64,000 nt of DNA from a bacterium (GCA_030704665.1 JAUYID010000009.1:256832-320831); one strand, 5' to 3'. Numbered from the stretch's first letter, positions 2,477 to 63,452 are shown. Notes: a model not told the origin generated them from the sequence alone. Translations and numbers: made by a program.

Positions 2477-2542
2477 GGAGTATTTTTTGGGGAGCGTAGG
2501 CGAGGTTCGAAAATGTCGCCTACGCTGCTCCCTCTTTTCTTC

Positions 2543-3610
2543 TTAACGCTCGTCTTCCAGACCGGGTAAGAGTTCATTGACGAGGTTGGCCGAGAGGAAC
2601 TCTTGGATCCTTGCGGGGTCGTCAGGAAAAATACCGAGGGCCTGGCGGAACTTGAAGTCAGCCATGTCGGGAGTCAGGCTTTCCAAGCTGAGAGCACCCG
2701 CGTCCTTCAGCTTCTGACCAAGTTCGTAGCGAGTCAAGATGACCCGACCGTCTTGGAAAGGTGAGAGGATAGCACAATAGACGCCTCGGTCGGTAGCGTA
2801 TTTTACCGCTTCGATCCAGGAACAGGTTTGCTTGCCTTCTGCATCTTCCCAGGGTTGGTCCGAAAGCTGACCGGCACCCTTACATTGGATGATAATCCCT
2901 TTGTATTCGCCAGAGTCGACGATGATCCTCAGCCCAATTGGGTTGGTGTCCCGCCGCGCTTCGGAAAGCGACCAGACTCGTCGCTCGTAGATCGTGTCAA
3001 GACGTAGTCCTTGAATGGCCAAAGCAGCGTCACGATGCTTCAGACCATCAAGGTGCATGATTCTTGGCCAGACATGGGCAACCGGTGGTCTACCCGGACT
3101 GTCAACGTAGTTTGGGTCGCTCTCCCTTTGTTTCTTGAGACGGCTGCCGTCGAAGACGTCGCCAACACACACCGTGTAGACACCGACGACCCCCTTGCGA
3201 ACGAAGGAAGCAGCTAGGCGCAACGAATTCTCCAGTTGCATGACGGCATCAGTACCAGGCTCTTCTCGCGACATTTGAGAGCCGATCACCAAGACGGGCT
3301 TTTGCAAGGTCTGTTTGAAAACCATGCAGAAGACGGCAGTCGTTTCCGCCAGTGAGTCAGTGCCGTGGAGTACGACGAAGGCGTCGTAGTCCTGATAGAC
3401 GGAGGCGATTTCCTGACACATCTGGATTCGATCCGAGTGTGGAATGTTGGTGCTATCCTGGAGTCTGTAGAACTCCTTCAGTTCGAGTTGGGTATCTCCA
3501 GGGACCTTCAAACCCTTGTACAGCTCAGCCGCAGTCAGGGCGGGTCGCAGAGGGTGGCCAACCATTCCGATGGTGCCACCAGTGTTCAGAACGAAAACCT
3601 TCATGACCAT
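2543..3610 (-). CDS. L-asparaginase family protein (type I-like)
   Basis: 355 aa. N-terminal NTGGTIGM threonine motif and HGTDSLAETT motif of the asparaginase/GatD family. Region is GC-rich by eye relative to neighbours. Confidence 0.65.
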   Translation of the reverse strand: MVMKVFVLNTGGTIGMVGHPLRPALTAAELYKGLKVPGDTQLELKEFYRLQDSTNIPHSDRIQMCQEIASVYQDYDAFVVLHGTDSLAETTAVFCMVFKQTLQKPVLVIGSQMSREEPGTDAVMQLENSLRLAASFVRKGVVGVYTVCVGDVFDGSRLKKQRESDPNYVDSPGRPPVAHVWPRIMHLDGLKHRDAALAIQGLRLDTIYERRVWSLSEARRDTNPIGLRIIVDSGEYKGIIIQCKGAGQLSDQPWEDAEGKQTCSWIEAVKYATDRGVYCAILSPFQDGRVILTRYELGQKLKDAGALSLESLTPDMADFKFRQALGIFPDDPARIQEFLSANLVNELLPGLEDER

Positions 3611-3831
3611 CTCTCCAGTTTGTTTTGAGCAGTGGGAGTGTGGGGATGTTTTCCCTAGAAAACTTTAGGGTCAAAGCTTACTAGGAGAAAAATCCTAAAT
3701 AGGTTGCCATTTTAACCGAAAGACATCTTGTAGTCAAAAAGGATTGGGTGTGTAAGAAATTTATTGGCAGGGGCGGTCGGAGGTGCAACCTTCGGTTGCT
3801 GCTTTTGCTAACGCAAAAGTCGAACTACTTT

Positions 3832-3905
3832 TGGCAGGCCCGGAGGGAATCGAACCCCCAATAGTGGTTTTGGAGACCGCTGTTATACCATTTAACTACG
3901 GGCCT
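3832..3905 (-). tRNA. tRNA-Trp (anticodon CCA)
   Basis: 74 nt cloverleaf read on the reverse complement. Anticodon loop CUCCAAA, T-arm GGTTCGATTCC, encoded CCA end. Confidence 0.8.
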
Positions 3906-3961
3906 AAGCCTAACTAGGTAAGGCGGATTTTAACTTATTTTCAGTTTAAATTCAATGAAAA

Positions 3962-4130
3962 TTTACTTTTTAACTTCGTTGTGAGGGGTGACTTTTCGAC
4001 AATGCTGACAAAATTTGTTAAAGGCCACTCTTTCAGGGTCGTTGATTTTGTTCTTTTCAGTTGTGTAGTTTTGATTCTTGCACTCGGAGCAGGCAAGATT
4101 GATCAAAATTCTTTTACCTTTTTTTGCCAT
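3962..4130 (-). pseudogene. rpmG: ribosomal protein L33 (rpmG) with apparent 1-nt insertion breaking the frame
   Basis: Reverse complement from ATG at 4130 reads MAKKGKRILINLACSE, then GAGTGGCAAG where L33 needs GAGTGCAAG (CSEC zinc motif). Deleting one G restores KNQNYTTEKNKINDPERVAFNKFCQHCRKVTPHNEVKK and the stop at 3962-3964. The region is 169 nt where an intact gene would be 168. Confidence 0.6.
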
Positions 4131-4261
4131 TTTTAAAAAACCTCGTTTCTATAGTTTACCTTGCTCAGTCAAATTTTCTGGAGCCGAGAGAGGAATGTTC
4201 AAGCTACGCTTGCTGATTTCGCTCTCGCGAAATACGCACCCACTTTCAGCTGTTTTAGTTT

Positions 4262-4336
4262 TGGAGCCGTCCGTCGGACTCGAACCGACAACCTGCTGTT
4301 TACAAAACAGCTGCTCTACCATTGAGCTAGGACGGC
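4262..4336 (-). tRNA. tRNA-Thr (anticodon TGT)
   Basis: 75 nt. D-arm GCTCAATGGTAGAGC, anticodon loop UUUGUAA, T-arm GGTTCGAGTCC, CCA encoded. Confidence 0.8.
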
Positions 4337-61760: not shown

Positions 61761-61922
61761 AGATAAGCCCCTCTCTTCTTTTTTGTGAGGCTATTTTAGA
61801 ATTTTGCAGCCTAGTTGTCAAATTTTTCGTGGGTAAAACGAAAAGATGAAGTGGGCCAGATTCCAGGGTGGTTTCCGGCCCAGAGATGAGTGTTGATCAG
61901 ATTTGGTCTGGACCCGAGGGTT

Positions 61923-62426
61923 TTAGGGGTCCCAGGGCTCAATGACCGTGTCGTCGTCAGCGACATAGGTGGTCGACATCTGCTCTTCGGTGAGAACTAC
62001 TCCGTCGACTCTCACCTGGTTGGTCAGGTGGATTCTGGTTGCCTGCTCGATCGCCGGCACCATCTCCGTGATGGTAAGCCCGACGACAGGTACACTGCGG
62101 GCTGCGACCAGTTCCTCCCCGAGAATACCCATGATCCTCACTAGTCGTTTCTTGGTGAGGAAGACGAGATCCCCCTCAGTGAGGACCCGTCTTGATTCGG
62201 ACAGGGTCACCGGGTTGGCGTAGTCGCCGTTCAGAACAACTACTCGAAGATCGCCGCTATCAACGAAACGAGCGTTGACGAAGTCCGGCAGGGTTGTTCC
62301 TTCAGGAATGTTGAGGTACTGCAGCGGCCCGCGTTCGACACGCACCCGAACACAGATCTGAGTCGGTACCCCGGGTTTGGGCGCAGCTGAGCTGGGTTTG
62401 GCTCTTGATAAGGTAGCAGTTCCCAC
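61923..62426 (-). CDS. hypothetical protein, paralog B (GC-rich islet), GTG start
   Basis: 167 aa. AAAGGAGAAG RBS before GTG. Two beta-rich repeats resembling SAF/beta-grasp-like modules. Confidence 0.45.
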   Translation of the reverse strand: MGTATLSRAKPSSAAPKPGVPTQICVRVRVERGPLQYLNIPEGTTLPDFVNARFVDSGDLRVVVLNGDYANPVTLSESRRVLTEGDLVFLTKKRLVRIMGILGEELVAARSVPVVGLTITEMVPAIEQATRIHLTNQVRVDGVVLTEEQMSTTYVADDDTVIEPWDP

Positions 62427-62618
62427 AATCTTCTCCTTTGAACTAACTTGCCTGTGGTTGTTACCCCAGTTTGCTTTTGTCTTCCCTCCTTTTCACTCCC
62501 GAGCCTTGTTGTGATTTTAGGACTCTTTTTATTTGCTTGTCAATTCCAAAAAGGAAAGCCTCCAGGCGAATTTTTGGTCTCGTTTAACTAATTAGAAAAT
62601 TTGTGCTATAGTTTTTTT

Positions 62619-63044
62619 ATGGATGAAAAAAACTGGCAAGAGTCAGTTTTGGCTAGCATTCCGGATATTGCTATGGTAGTCAACAAAGACGGCAATATTC
62701 TTTACATCAACCACATCTTGCCGCAGTTCACCCGCGAAGAAGTCATTGGCTCTTCGGTGAACAACTATATTCCATCAGCCTATCACGAAACTTACAAAGA
62801 GGCTCTCAAAGAAGTTTTCGGCTCAAGTGCTAGTAAAGACTTCATCGTCACCGGCGCAGGACCGAACAACTCGACTTCTTGGTACTTGACGAGGATCGGA
62901 CCGATCAAATCTGGTGAAACTGTTGAGGCAGCCGCTATCATTTCTACAGATATCACTCCAAGAATGATGATCGATGACGATCTCAAGGCTGCCAAGGCTG
63001 AGGTTGACCGACTTCAAACTCAACTCAACGAGCTCCAAAAATAA
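62619..63044 (+). CDS. PAS domain protein with C-terminal coiled coil
   Basis: Extended -10 TGCTATAGT upstream. IAMVVNKDGNILYINHI PAS core. Confidence 0.55.
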   Translation: MDEKNWQESVLASIPDIAMVVNKDGNILYINHILPQFTREEVIGSSVNNYIPSAYHETYKEALKEVFGSSASKDFIVTGAGPNNSTSWYLTRIGPIKSGETVEAAAIISTDITPRMMIDDDLKAAKAEVDRLQTQLNELQK

Positions 63045-63188
63045 ATTAATTTCCTGATTAGTTAAAAGTGAAAAAGTTTAGGAAAAAGAGGTCTGAAGGC
63101 CGGCTAGCTGTGTGTGCTGTACCAGGGAGGGTGCATACAGACACAGACTAGCCGACCCACACCTCATCGGTCTATCACGGCAGAGTGA

Positions 63189-63338
63189 TCAGACCGAAGA
63201 AGTCTCGCCGCAGGCCATCCAGTACGGGGATGAGCTGACGGCTTTGGCCTCGTCGGTGGCGACGTGCTTCATCGCGATCACATCGATCGTCGACGAGTTA
63301 GTCGGAGAGCCGCGAGGGCCGTGGATGGTGGTCATCAT
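63189..63338 (-). CDS. small hypothetical ORF (49 aa) with perfect RBS (GC-rich islet)
   Basis: AAGGAGGTCGGTC ATG ATG on the minus strand. Below the ORF-track cutoff. Confidence 0.3.
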   Translation of the reverse strand: MMTTIHGPRGSPTNSSTIDVIAMKHVATDEAKAVSSSPYWMACGETSSV

Positions 63339-63452
63339 GACCGACCTCCTTGGAACGTTCTCAAGCACGTAGGTTTTTACGTGTGAGAACTCTTGCCGAT
63401 ACTAGAAATTATTAGGCAAGCAGACAGTATTTGTCAATAAAAAGGCAAAGAA

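Follow-up and report, generated by a model that had tools for sequence, protein, structure and literature searches.

GC-rich micro-islets with a common compositional signature in the AT-rich genome of a Woykebacteria-like bacterium

Introduction

How does a small, AT-rich bacterial genome come to carry short GC-rich genes lodged between its conserved genes? The question is raised by a 64,000-nucleotide stretch of DNA (GCA_030704665.1, JAUYID010000009.1:256832-320831; hereafter the window), which is part of a 938,369-bp contig of a metagenome-assembled genome with the locus tags Q8P13_. An initial annotation, made from the sequence alone, had listed 14 GC-rich segments in this window and read them as repeated small-scale horizontal acquisitions from a high-GC donor, perhaps the actinobacterial host of an epibiotic member of the Candidate Phyla Radiation (CPR). 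We find that most of these segments, here called islets and numbered as in that list, form a distinct compositional class, are inserted into a syntenic core, and share their signature with an islet of a related genome. We lean, with moderate confidence, towards the view that they are horizontally acquired micro-islets, taken up repeatedly from one GC-richer pool among CPR- or DPANN-type organisms or uncharacterised mobile elements.

Results

Composition of the islets

All 14 segments are enriched in GC (0.50-0.59 each). Pooled over 14,752 bp they reach 0.535, where the other 49 kb of the window have 0.443, which bears out the contrast between GC-rich segments and AT-rich backbone that had been seen by eye; in 300-bp windows the islets stand at 0.537 over a background of 0.445 ± 0.037. 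GC content at third codon positions (GC3) is 0.628 ± 0.066 in islet open reading frames (ORFs; n = 21) and 0.446 ± 0.046 in core genes (n = 49; Mann-Whitney p = 6e-11); the two ranges scarcely overlap, and GC is raised at all three codon positions. Synonymous codon usage also differs between islets and core (chi2 = 494, df = 41), as does amino-acid content, with lysine at 3.8% in islets and 7.9% in the core, and arginine at 8.5% and 4.4%. The GC-normalised dinucleotide signature of the islets lies at a distance (delta*) of 0.101 from that of the core, against 0.024 ± 0.007 for random core samples of equal size (z = 10.7). The islets are therefore distinct in GC3, codon usage and delta* alike, and their composition deviates in the manner by which horizontally acquired islets are recognised.

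The GC excess is limited to the islet ORFs, the surrounding spacers having values of 0.31-0.50. In signature the 13 coding islets are as uniform as the core (delta* between random halves of 0.044 and 0.038, respectively). Sliding-window heterogeneity of the degree found here is rare in 119 comparison loci, where the median fraction of high windows is 0; it recurs in L002, L010 and L165. The islets are also set apart by their translation signals: a Shine-Dalgarno (SD) core of at least 5 nt precedes 11 of the 21 islet ORFs and 4 of the 49 core genes (Fisher p = 1e-4), and one of at least 4 nt precedes 14 of the 21. The claim that nearly all islet genes have an AAGGAGG site was thus overstated, and the enrichment over the core behind it is real.

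Three of the listed segments need to be redrawn. Segment 23027-25200, with a GC content of just 0.50, is a mosaic in which a GNAT gene and an 83-aa ORF are GC-rich, and a Ser-rich ORF between them (23543-24028) is core-like at 0.45. In segment 10 (45190-46100) the GNAT gene is GC-rich, and its neighbour, a DUF3465 gene on the minus strand (45708-46100), has a core-like GC content of 0.47. In the segment 51200-52700 no ORF is credible and the signature resembles that of the core; it does not stand as a gene islet.

Insertion into a syntenic core

The islets are lineage-specific insertions into a syntenic AT-rich core, because their flanking genes stay adjacent in related Microgenomates-type loci: the nearest genome, a Woykebacteria relative (L002), another near relative (L001), and two other loci of Microgenomates type (L104, L117). 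In L001 and L002 the order wzy-TPR, a 100-aa gene, def-fmt, rpmB, an M50 protease gene and tRNAs is contiguous with spacers of 60-250 bp, and two of these spacers are enlarged in the window, to 1.9 kb by islet 3 and to 2.3 kb by islet 4 together with a PaaX-like gene. The gap between rpmB and def-fmt, which holds islet 3 here, is about 60-70 bp in both relatives, and positions 10409-12675 of the window are replaced by about 250 bp in L002. Elsewhere, the ybeY-pth gap is 80 bp in L117, the mfd-dnaX gap is 67 bp in L117 and L104, and the dnaX-recR gap in other Microgenomates-type loci (420-540 bp) would hold ybaB and nothing more; at these sites the window has 0.6-1.1 kb. Overall, gaps of 60-250 bp in the four loci stand against 0.6-2.3 kb in the window.

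The interruption of conserved neighbourhoods at ybaB-recR and ybeY-pth, noted in the initial annotation, is thereby confirmed and extends to mfd-dnaX, the 100-aa gene-def-fmt junction and def-fmt-rpmB (L28). These five junctions are contiguous in L001, L002, L104 and L117, with one exception to absence from the syntenic site: the ybaB-recR islet is present in a closer relative (L166). A tblastn search with 28 ORFs of the islet segments found no match in 160 related fetched loci, in which their core neighbours do match. The spacer between the 100-aa gene and def-fmt, the site of islet 4 in the window, may be a recurrent insertion hotspot; L001 carries there a 9.3-kb insertion of native GC content (L001:700-9913), which includes a 1,521-aa ORF.

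A signature shared across genomes

L002 possesses an islet of its own at the mreB-wzy site (L002:3351-6916), which has a GC content of 0.54, is SD-led and encodes two alpha/beta hydrolases and several ORFans. It is not homologous to anything in the window, where mreB and wzy are adjacent. The signature of this islet nonetheless lies at a delta* of 0.034 from that of the window islets, inside the range expected from sampling a single source (0.034-0.073), whereas the two cores are 0.078 apart and each islet set is separated from either core by 0.11-0.14. No locus of 124 controls comes nearer to the window islets than 0.080, and none of 41 loci with similar GC content nearer than 0.094. Relative synonymous codon usage correlates between the islets of the two genomes (r = 0.73) and much less with that of their own cores (r = 0.30 and -0.12). 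A pool of GC-rich genes from five other contigs falls in between, at a delta* of 0.05-0.08 from the islets and 0.10-0.14 from the cores.

Relatives of the islet proteins

Large-database searches for homologues covered three islet families: the asparaginase of islet 1, the 243-aa membrane protein of islet 6a and the acyltransferase-like protein of islet 11. Islet 1 (2543-3610, minus strand; GC 0.55, GC3 0.63) is a 355-aa gene beside a tRNA cluster, placed in the type-I asparaginase family by PF00710 in its N-terminal part (E = 8e-34) and PF17763 in its C-terminal part (E = 7e-10). The stretch of L002 between its tRNAs and its 71-259 homologue has no match to this asparaginase. The search returned 1,407 homologues, the best of them 65-50% identical, and all named matches belong to CPR bacteria (Magasanik-, Doudna-, Kaiser- and Nomurabacteria) or DPANN archaea. 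On the contigs of the two closest homologues (L163, L165) the gene is a GC-rich outlier, at 0.57-0.58 against 0.47-0.49 for the locus. Its high GC content is a property of one subclade and not intrinsic to the gene, because the gene stands near local GC (0.36-0.49) on three contigs, one of Magasanikbacteria and one of Aenigmarchaeota among them (L169, L171 and L173). On the window branch, substitutions from GC to AT outnumber those from AT to GC by 36 to 10, a net loss of GC subject to the usual caveats of parsimony. The amino-acid composition of 120 homologues was uninformative.

The asparaginase gene is also found in a three-gene cassette with a glutaminase-ankyrin fusion and a small ankyrin protein (L169:6060-9068, L171:5345-8263, L173:783-3752), of which the window has the asparaginase alone. 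The occurrence of this cassette in CPR-type bacteria and in a DPANN archaeon (Aenigmarchaeota) implies cross-domain transfer.

The second family is small. The helical membrane protein of islet 6a (28859-29590, plus strand), 243 aa long with conserved Cys, His and Trp, has 16 homologues among 1.8 billion cluster representatives, and the two that were looked up lie among AT-rich genes, some of them CPR-typical. One (L176) is a sharply bounded single-gene islet, with GC of 0.59 and GC3 of 0.74 in a locus of 0.38, a GC3 contrast of +0.44; the other (L168) has 0.49 against 0.37-0.46. An AlphaFold2 model of the family is all-helical and of low confidence (pLDDT 71, pTM 0.37), too weak for a fold search. 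A CYTH gene lies beside the gene for the 243-aa protein in both the window and L176; we rejected it as a sign of synteny, the CYTH proteins not being detectably related.

The third family bears on the age of the insertions. Islet 11 (48260-49174, plus strand) encodes a 304-aa LpxL/PatA-type acyltransferase-like protein between ybaB and recR, and has only three homologues. The best (67% identical) lies on a 1.5-kb contig from another sample, between the C-terminus of YbaB (90% identical) and the N-terminus of RecR (77%), with a GC content of 0.55 against 0.33-0.44 around it; the upstream spacer, promoter and SD are 83% identical between the two. Since the orthologous site is occupied in this relative, the ybaB-recR islet predates the split of the two lineages and is not recent. 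This homologue in the same lineage and at the same locus speaks against recent acquisition, at least for this islet. Identity of the islet to its orthologue at four-fold sites is 0.34, and GC3 is 0.62 and 0.59 in the two lineages, where recR has 0.46 and 0.38. The gene is a GC-rich outlier in both L166 and L167. We also considered the balanced flux between GC and AT in this gene as a sign of compositional stasis; that reading was rejected because the outgroup is saturated and parallel decay in both lineages would look alike.

The window protein itself falls below the PF03279 threshold, and its probable placement in that family follows from its relatives, three of the four family members matching (best E = 2.9e-19); H130 and E135 are invariant, in an H-x4-E arrangement. 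Its sole match in the PDB is the mycobacterial PatA, a weak one (E = 0.2). The LpxL/PatA-like identity proposed earlier is thus probable, and the actinobacterial link drawn from it is not supported.

Organisation of the remaining islets

The islet products are mostly small ORFs without a family, many of them with hydrophobic stretches, and membrane or exported proteins are suggested for many of them. Islet 2 (4962-5725, minus strand) is predicted to be a full cassette: a promoter module (5566-5725) with the promoter TTGACT-17-TGCTATAAT, a GAGGGA SD, a 166-aa ORF (5029-5529; GC3 about 0.76) with a hydrophobic N-terminus and no Pfam, PHROG or PADLOC match, and a terminator made of a GC hairpin and a T-run at about 4962-5000. 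Islet 3, between rpmB and def-fmt on the plus strand, comprises a 139-aa ORFan with a AGAAGGAGAG SD and a GC content of 0.57 (3a, 7237-7656), a second copy of the promoter module (7717-7874) followed by a 211-aa ORF (7968-8603) with a hydrophobic N-terminus (3b, 7717-8603), and a 66-aa hydrophobic ORF (8616-8816) with a terminator-like module (3c, 8616-8968). Between def-fmt and the PaaX/Cas2-like gene, islet 4 (10499-11837, plus strand) holds SD-led ORFans of 122, 155 and 77 aa.

Islet 5 consists of a GNAT acetyltransferase gene (5a, 23027-23512, plus strand; PF00583, GC 0.53) and an 83-aa ORFan with a AAAGGAGG SD (5b, 24931-25182, minus strand; GC 0.56). Downstream of islet 6a follows a 79-aa two-helix membrane ORF (6b, 29638-29877, plus strand) with a GAGAGGAG SD, a GC3 of 0.73 and a holin-like Pfam match that is sub-threshold only. 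Islet 7 (30379-30807, plus strand) encodes 142 aa with a Cys-rich N-terminus and a helix-turn-helix (HTH) like that of sigma-70 region 4 (PF04545), and has a weak PHROG match to a Q-like antiterminator. Overlapping hydrophobic ORFans of 123 and 78 aa make up islet 8, between proS and a PHP gene (36416-37020, minus strand), and a 120-aa ORFan, again with a AAAGGAGG SD, forms islet 9 between ybeY and pth (39396-39758, plus strand). The GNAT acetyltransferase gene of islet 10, recognised by Pfam, occupies the mfd-dnaX site (45192-45674, plus strand; GC 0.54). Islet 13 (61170-62426, minus strand) carries paralogous SD-led ORFans of 196 and 167 aa that are 34% identical, and islet 14 (63112-63372, plus strand) a putative 86-aa ORF with a GTG start, no SD and a GC3 of 0.74.

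Expression modules, repeats and tRNA fragments

The promoter module of about 160 nt is present as an inverted pair (5566-5725 and 7717-7874) whose copies are 80% identical and lie upstream of unrelated islet genes, those of islets 2 and 3b. Each ends in a near-consensus sigma-70-type promoter, TTGACT-17-TG-TATAAT, and the stem pairing of its hairpin is kept by compensatory changes; the module may be a shared cis-regulatory element. Two islets also have in common a 48-nt terminator-like module, the copy at 8921-8968 being 81% identical to that at 30159-30206, and hairpin/T-run terminators are found at both positions and at about 4962-5000. Because promoter and terminator modules are found at the islets, at least some of them can be read as complete expression cassettes of promoter, SD, ORF and terminator. 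Generic promoter and terminator scans returned little beyond the two module promoters.

Other repeats are palindromes. One of about 30 nt, ACAAAnTnCACGATCGTGnAnTTTGT, has six copies in spacers (4895-4918 on the minus strand, 8978-9001, 11940-11957, 12510-12533, 24700-24717 and 53447-53470), several at islet edges, and was not found in the other fetched loci compared. Two copies flank the gene of the PaaX/Cas2-like regulator (12003-12512), for which the palindrome may be an operator. Longer palindromes of 48-64 nt, 75-79% self-complementary, stand in spacers at islet edges (30212-30273, 36353-36400 and 52850-52911) and contain a recurring motif, TGTCATCCTGAAT...ATTCAGGAT, that is also present at 6734-6758 and 33334-33358. 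Many islets had been described as bounded by repeats; this is so for a minority of them, and the repeats are palindromes, terminators and the promoter module, not transposon ends.

Next to islet 2, just upstream of tRNA-Thr(GGU), three truncated tRNA 5' portions stand in tandem (4661-4815, minus strand). They consist of the acceptor 5' strand and D-arm, two of them also with part of an anticodon-arm-like hairpin, and were not called by ARAGORN or Rfam. These fragments could be scars of past integration or duplication.

An ORF-less GC-rich region

The segment rejected above as a gene islet, the twelfth of the list, belongs to a GC-rich stretch of 2.1 kb that has no ORF (50856-52934, plus strand) and whose signature is core-like, at a delta* of 0.050 from the core and 0.110 from the islets. 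Neither of two annotations calls a gene in it, the PGAP annotation having one protein between yqeY and cysS, taken as DUF1003. Rfam gave no match even at permissive thresholds, and blastn of the 2-kb region gave none against phages and plasmids. Its predicted folding is pronounced: for 51900-52880 the plus strand has a fold z-score of -4.6 and the minus strand one of -2.6, the strands of 51200-52200 differ by 53 kcal/mol in fold energy, and the mean z-score in 120-nt windows is -1.77 for the region, where the core has -0.24 and the tRNA cluster -1.21. The region is a candidate for a novel large structured RNA.

The recipient genome

Judging from its genes, the organism is a CPR bacterium with a small genome, Woykebacteria-like, and the suspicion of a CPR organism proves well founded. 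The core content is typical of CPR (Patescibacteria), with a Def-Fmt fusion, MreBC-PBP2, DprA, TopA, dCTP-deaminase paralogues, a thymidylate-synthase-like fusion, rpsB, proS, rpsU-ybeY, pth, mfd, dnaX-ybaB-recR, cysS, pseudopilins and PilN; DprA and the pilin/PilN genes are competence-related. The Def-Fmt protein is 56% identical to that of each of the two nearest genomes in a search that took one representative per species, a mislabelled metagenome-assembled genome and one of Candidatus Woykebacteria/Microgenomates. A DnaX scan of JGI metagenomes found no close relative (top match 42% identity), and no exact-protein match to the Def-Fmt fusion is on record, probably owing to another start call.

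The fusion itself (9062-10408, minus strand) unites peptide deformylase and methionyl-tRNA formyltransferase in a single 448-aa protein and is kept in the nearest CPR relatives. A second fusion, of 521 aa (27191-28756, plus strand), joins MtrA-like, thymidylate-synthase-like and pterin-binding DUF4346 domains downstream of two dCTP-deaminase-like paralogues and a CYTH protein, an unusual dTMP-synthesis cluster. Many core genes have no SD and carry a TAnnnT (-10-like) box 5-15 nt ahead of the start codon (for example at starts 10408, 30914, 37122, 53649 and 63944); at a distance of at most 18 nt such a box precedes 15 of the 49 core genes and 2 of the 21 islet ORFs. Many core mRNAs are thereby suggested to be leaderless or to have very short leaders, unlike the SD-led islet genes.

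Discussion

What could be the origin of the islets? In the scenario that we favour, units of one to three genes, several with their own sigma-70-type promoter, SD and terminator, would have lodged in the intergenic spacers of a syntenic, AT-rich and largely SD-poor core of a Woykebacteria-like CPR bacterium. Their source would be compositionally uniform, with a GC content of about 55-60%, most likely the flexible gene pool of CPR- or DPANN-type organisms. Uptake might proceed through the genome's own DprA and type-IV-pilus competence genes, followed by illegitimate recombination, and the products (membrane or exported proteins, acyltransferases, an asparaginase and an HTH regulator) might modify the cell envelope or assist nutrient scavenging. 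Each of the three families with detectable homologues turns up again as a GC-rich outlier on other AT-rich contigs that are apparently of CPR type. In the account of transfers given for groundwater Patescibacteria, 83% of the inferred transfers fall within the phylum, some involve DPANN and most are not recent (PMC12455944); a pool within CPR agrees with the mostly intra-phylum, non-recent transfers of that account.

Several observations weigh against this scenario. No donor genome was found, and the window shows neither an integrase or transposase nor a target-site duplication or att site; Pfam scans of islets and core returned none of the mobility genes that are a hallmark of mobile islands, and islets 1 and 2 alone adjoin tRNAs and tRNA fragments. 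The matching of signatures uses short sequences, of 3.4-13 kb. Several lineage-specific inserted genes (PaaX-like, DUF3465, SH3 and GAF) are not GC-rich. The ybaB-recR islet is old and yet keeps a GC3 of about 0.6 in both lineages, which simple amelioration fits only if GC3 started near 0.8. Finally, 16 of the 21 islet ORFs of the statistics set have no Pfam match above threshold.

Could the islets instead be native, long-resident and vertically inherited accessory genes whose composition is held by a class-specific force such as GC-biased gene conversion in loci that recombine often, or SD-linked selection? The ybaB-recR islet would suit this explanation, being orthologous, near saturation at synonymous sites and still richer in GC3 than recR; so would the limitation of high GC to ORFs amid AT-rich spacers, the uniform composition of a class that L002 has in common with the window, and the difference in expression signals between islets and core. 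We consider it unlikely all the same, as the GC3 contrast in L176 is too large for known bacterial effects of gene conversion or selection, the asparaginase gene tracks local GC in other genomes and has moved, within the limits of parsimony, towards AT on the window branch, the islets are missing from syntenic sites in relatives, and the bias is missing from highly expressed core genes, rpsB among them. That the islets might be chimeric joins or contaminants of the bin is suggested by abrupt composition switches in a metagenome-assembled genome, and is scarcely credible: contigs of SRR13727534 from a second assembler (Logan) are 100% identical over 9511-20867 and 39882-53314 and reproduce the junctions of five listed segments, the ybaB-islet-recR layout recurs in another, unrelated sample, and each islet lies between syntenic core genes on both sides, on one 938-kb contig.

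Transfer from some high-GC organism in general is possible. In its specific form, an epibiotic CPR cell repeatedly fixing short fragments of a high-GC host such as an actinobacterium, it would account for one uniform foreign signature common to two related CPR genomes, for small inserts without mobility genes in a genome with competence genes, and for canonical sigma-70 promoters and strong SD sites; the mycobacterial PatA is the best solved-structure match of the acyltransferase-like protein, if only at E = 0.2. We nevertheless find such a host improbable as the donor. Every named homologue is from CPR or DPANN, the named ones all being asparaginases, and the two remaining families, with no more than 3 and 16 homologues, occur where the surroundings are AT-rich and apparently of CPR type; Pfam should moreover annotate most fragments drawn at random from the genome of a free-living host, contrary to what the islet ORFs show. 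No copy of at least 90% identity exists among 15 billion proteins, though core proteins are likewise singletons; with 10 of 10 islet proteins and 10 core proteins singletons at 90% identity, we discarded this status as evidence. Of the earlier interpretation, foreign, lineage-specific insertions on a small scale therefore stand, and neither recency nor donation by a high-GC host outside CPR, actinobacterial or other, is supported. Quite improbable, too, are prophage or mobile-element remnants, in the manner of moron cargo, in spite of the promoter-SD-ORF-terminator layout between conserved genes, the deviant composition, the many ORFans, the tRNA 5'-half fragments beside islet 2 and the weak holin-like and Q-like matches. 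A PHROGs scan of ten islet proteins gave a single weak match, tblastn of 18 islet proteins matched none of 50,697 phage records and none of 72,556 plasmid records, IMG/VR yielded nothing in two scans, and the islets, scattered over 60 kb, include no integrase or structural gene. Nor did PADLOC match a defence system in nine islet proteins, only the core-like PaaX/Cas2-like gene matching Cas2 models.

Repeated uptake from a GC-richer pool among CPR- or DPANN-type organisms or mobile elements thus being preferred, the shared signature invites a stronger proposal. Woykebacteria-like CPR genomes might hold a second stable compositional compartment of single-gene cassettes with one foreign signature (GC content near 54%, delta* about 0.03 from genome to genome and about 0.11 to either core), recording a long-term flow of DNA from one persistent partner, either the host of the clade or a dedicated CPR mobile element. 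We regard this as doubtful; if true, the signature could be used to identify the partner in the source community. The genomes of CPR bacteria are tiny and most lineages have no known host, so that a shared islet signature would, if there is one source, offer a testable handle on the partner in DNA exchange. Small, complete expression units free of mobility genes also make a clean case for gene gain in a streamlined, competence-equipped genome. Should the islets reflect ordinary horizontal transfer only, the value of the analysis would lie in the corrected annotation, with islets that are not actinobacterial and not all recent, and one that is an RNA candidate.

How do the islets compare with known systems? 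They resemble the class III codon-usage genes of Escherichia coli and genomic islets in forming a distinct, uniform class of sporadic accessory genes, many without homologues, between conserved genes. The classical alien gene class is AT-rich, and here the polarity is reversed, with GC-rich islets in an AT-rich genome; the units also measure 0.3-2 kb, have no integrases, and have their signature in common with the non-homologous islets of a genome that is about 56-61% identical in core proteins. Phage morons are additional genes of deviant composition, each with a promoter and terminator of its own, set between conserved phage genes. Islets 2 and 3 at least match this anatomy, with promoter, SD, ORF, terminator and conserved neighbours, and islets 2 and 3b constitute autonomous promoter-gene-terminator units; the islets differ from morons in lying in a bacterial chromosome core, not a prophage, and in having no phage homology. 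Integron cassettes are not matched, the islets being scattered, with no integrase and no repeated attC-like element at cassette ends. A parallel in polarity is the low-GC genome of Lawsonia intracellularis, for which putatively transferred genes are reported to be unusually GC-rich (PMC2671203), alien genes in an AT-rich genome as here, in a different organism and on a different scale. The groundwater Patescibacteria study likewise describes CPR genomes with many transferred genes. Its phylogenetic and tool-based detection yields individual genes and islands of larger size; the part of that paper drawn on here describes no class of GC-rich single genes whose signature is common to several genomes (PMC12455944). 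The islets add one more example to a known type of feature, and the signature shared across genomes is the unusual part.

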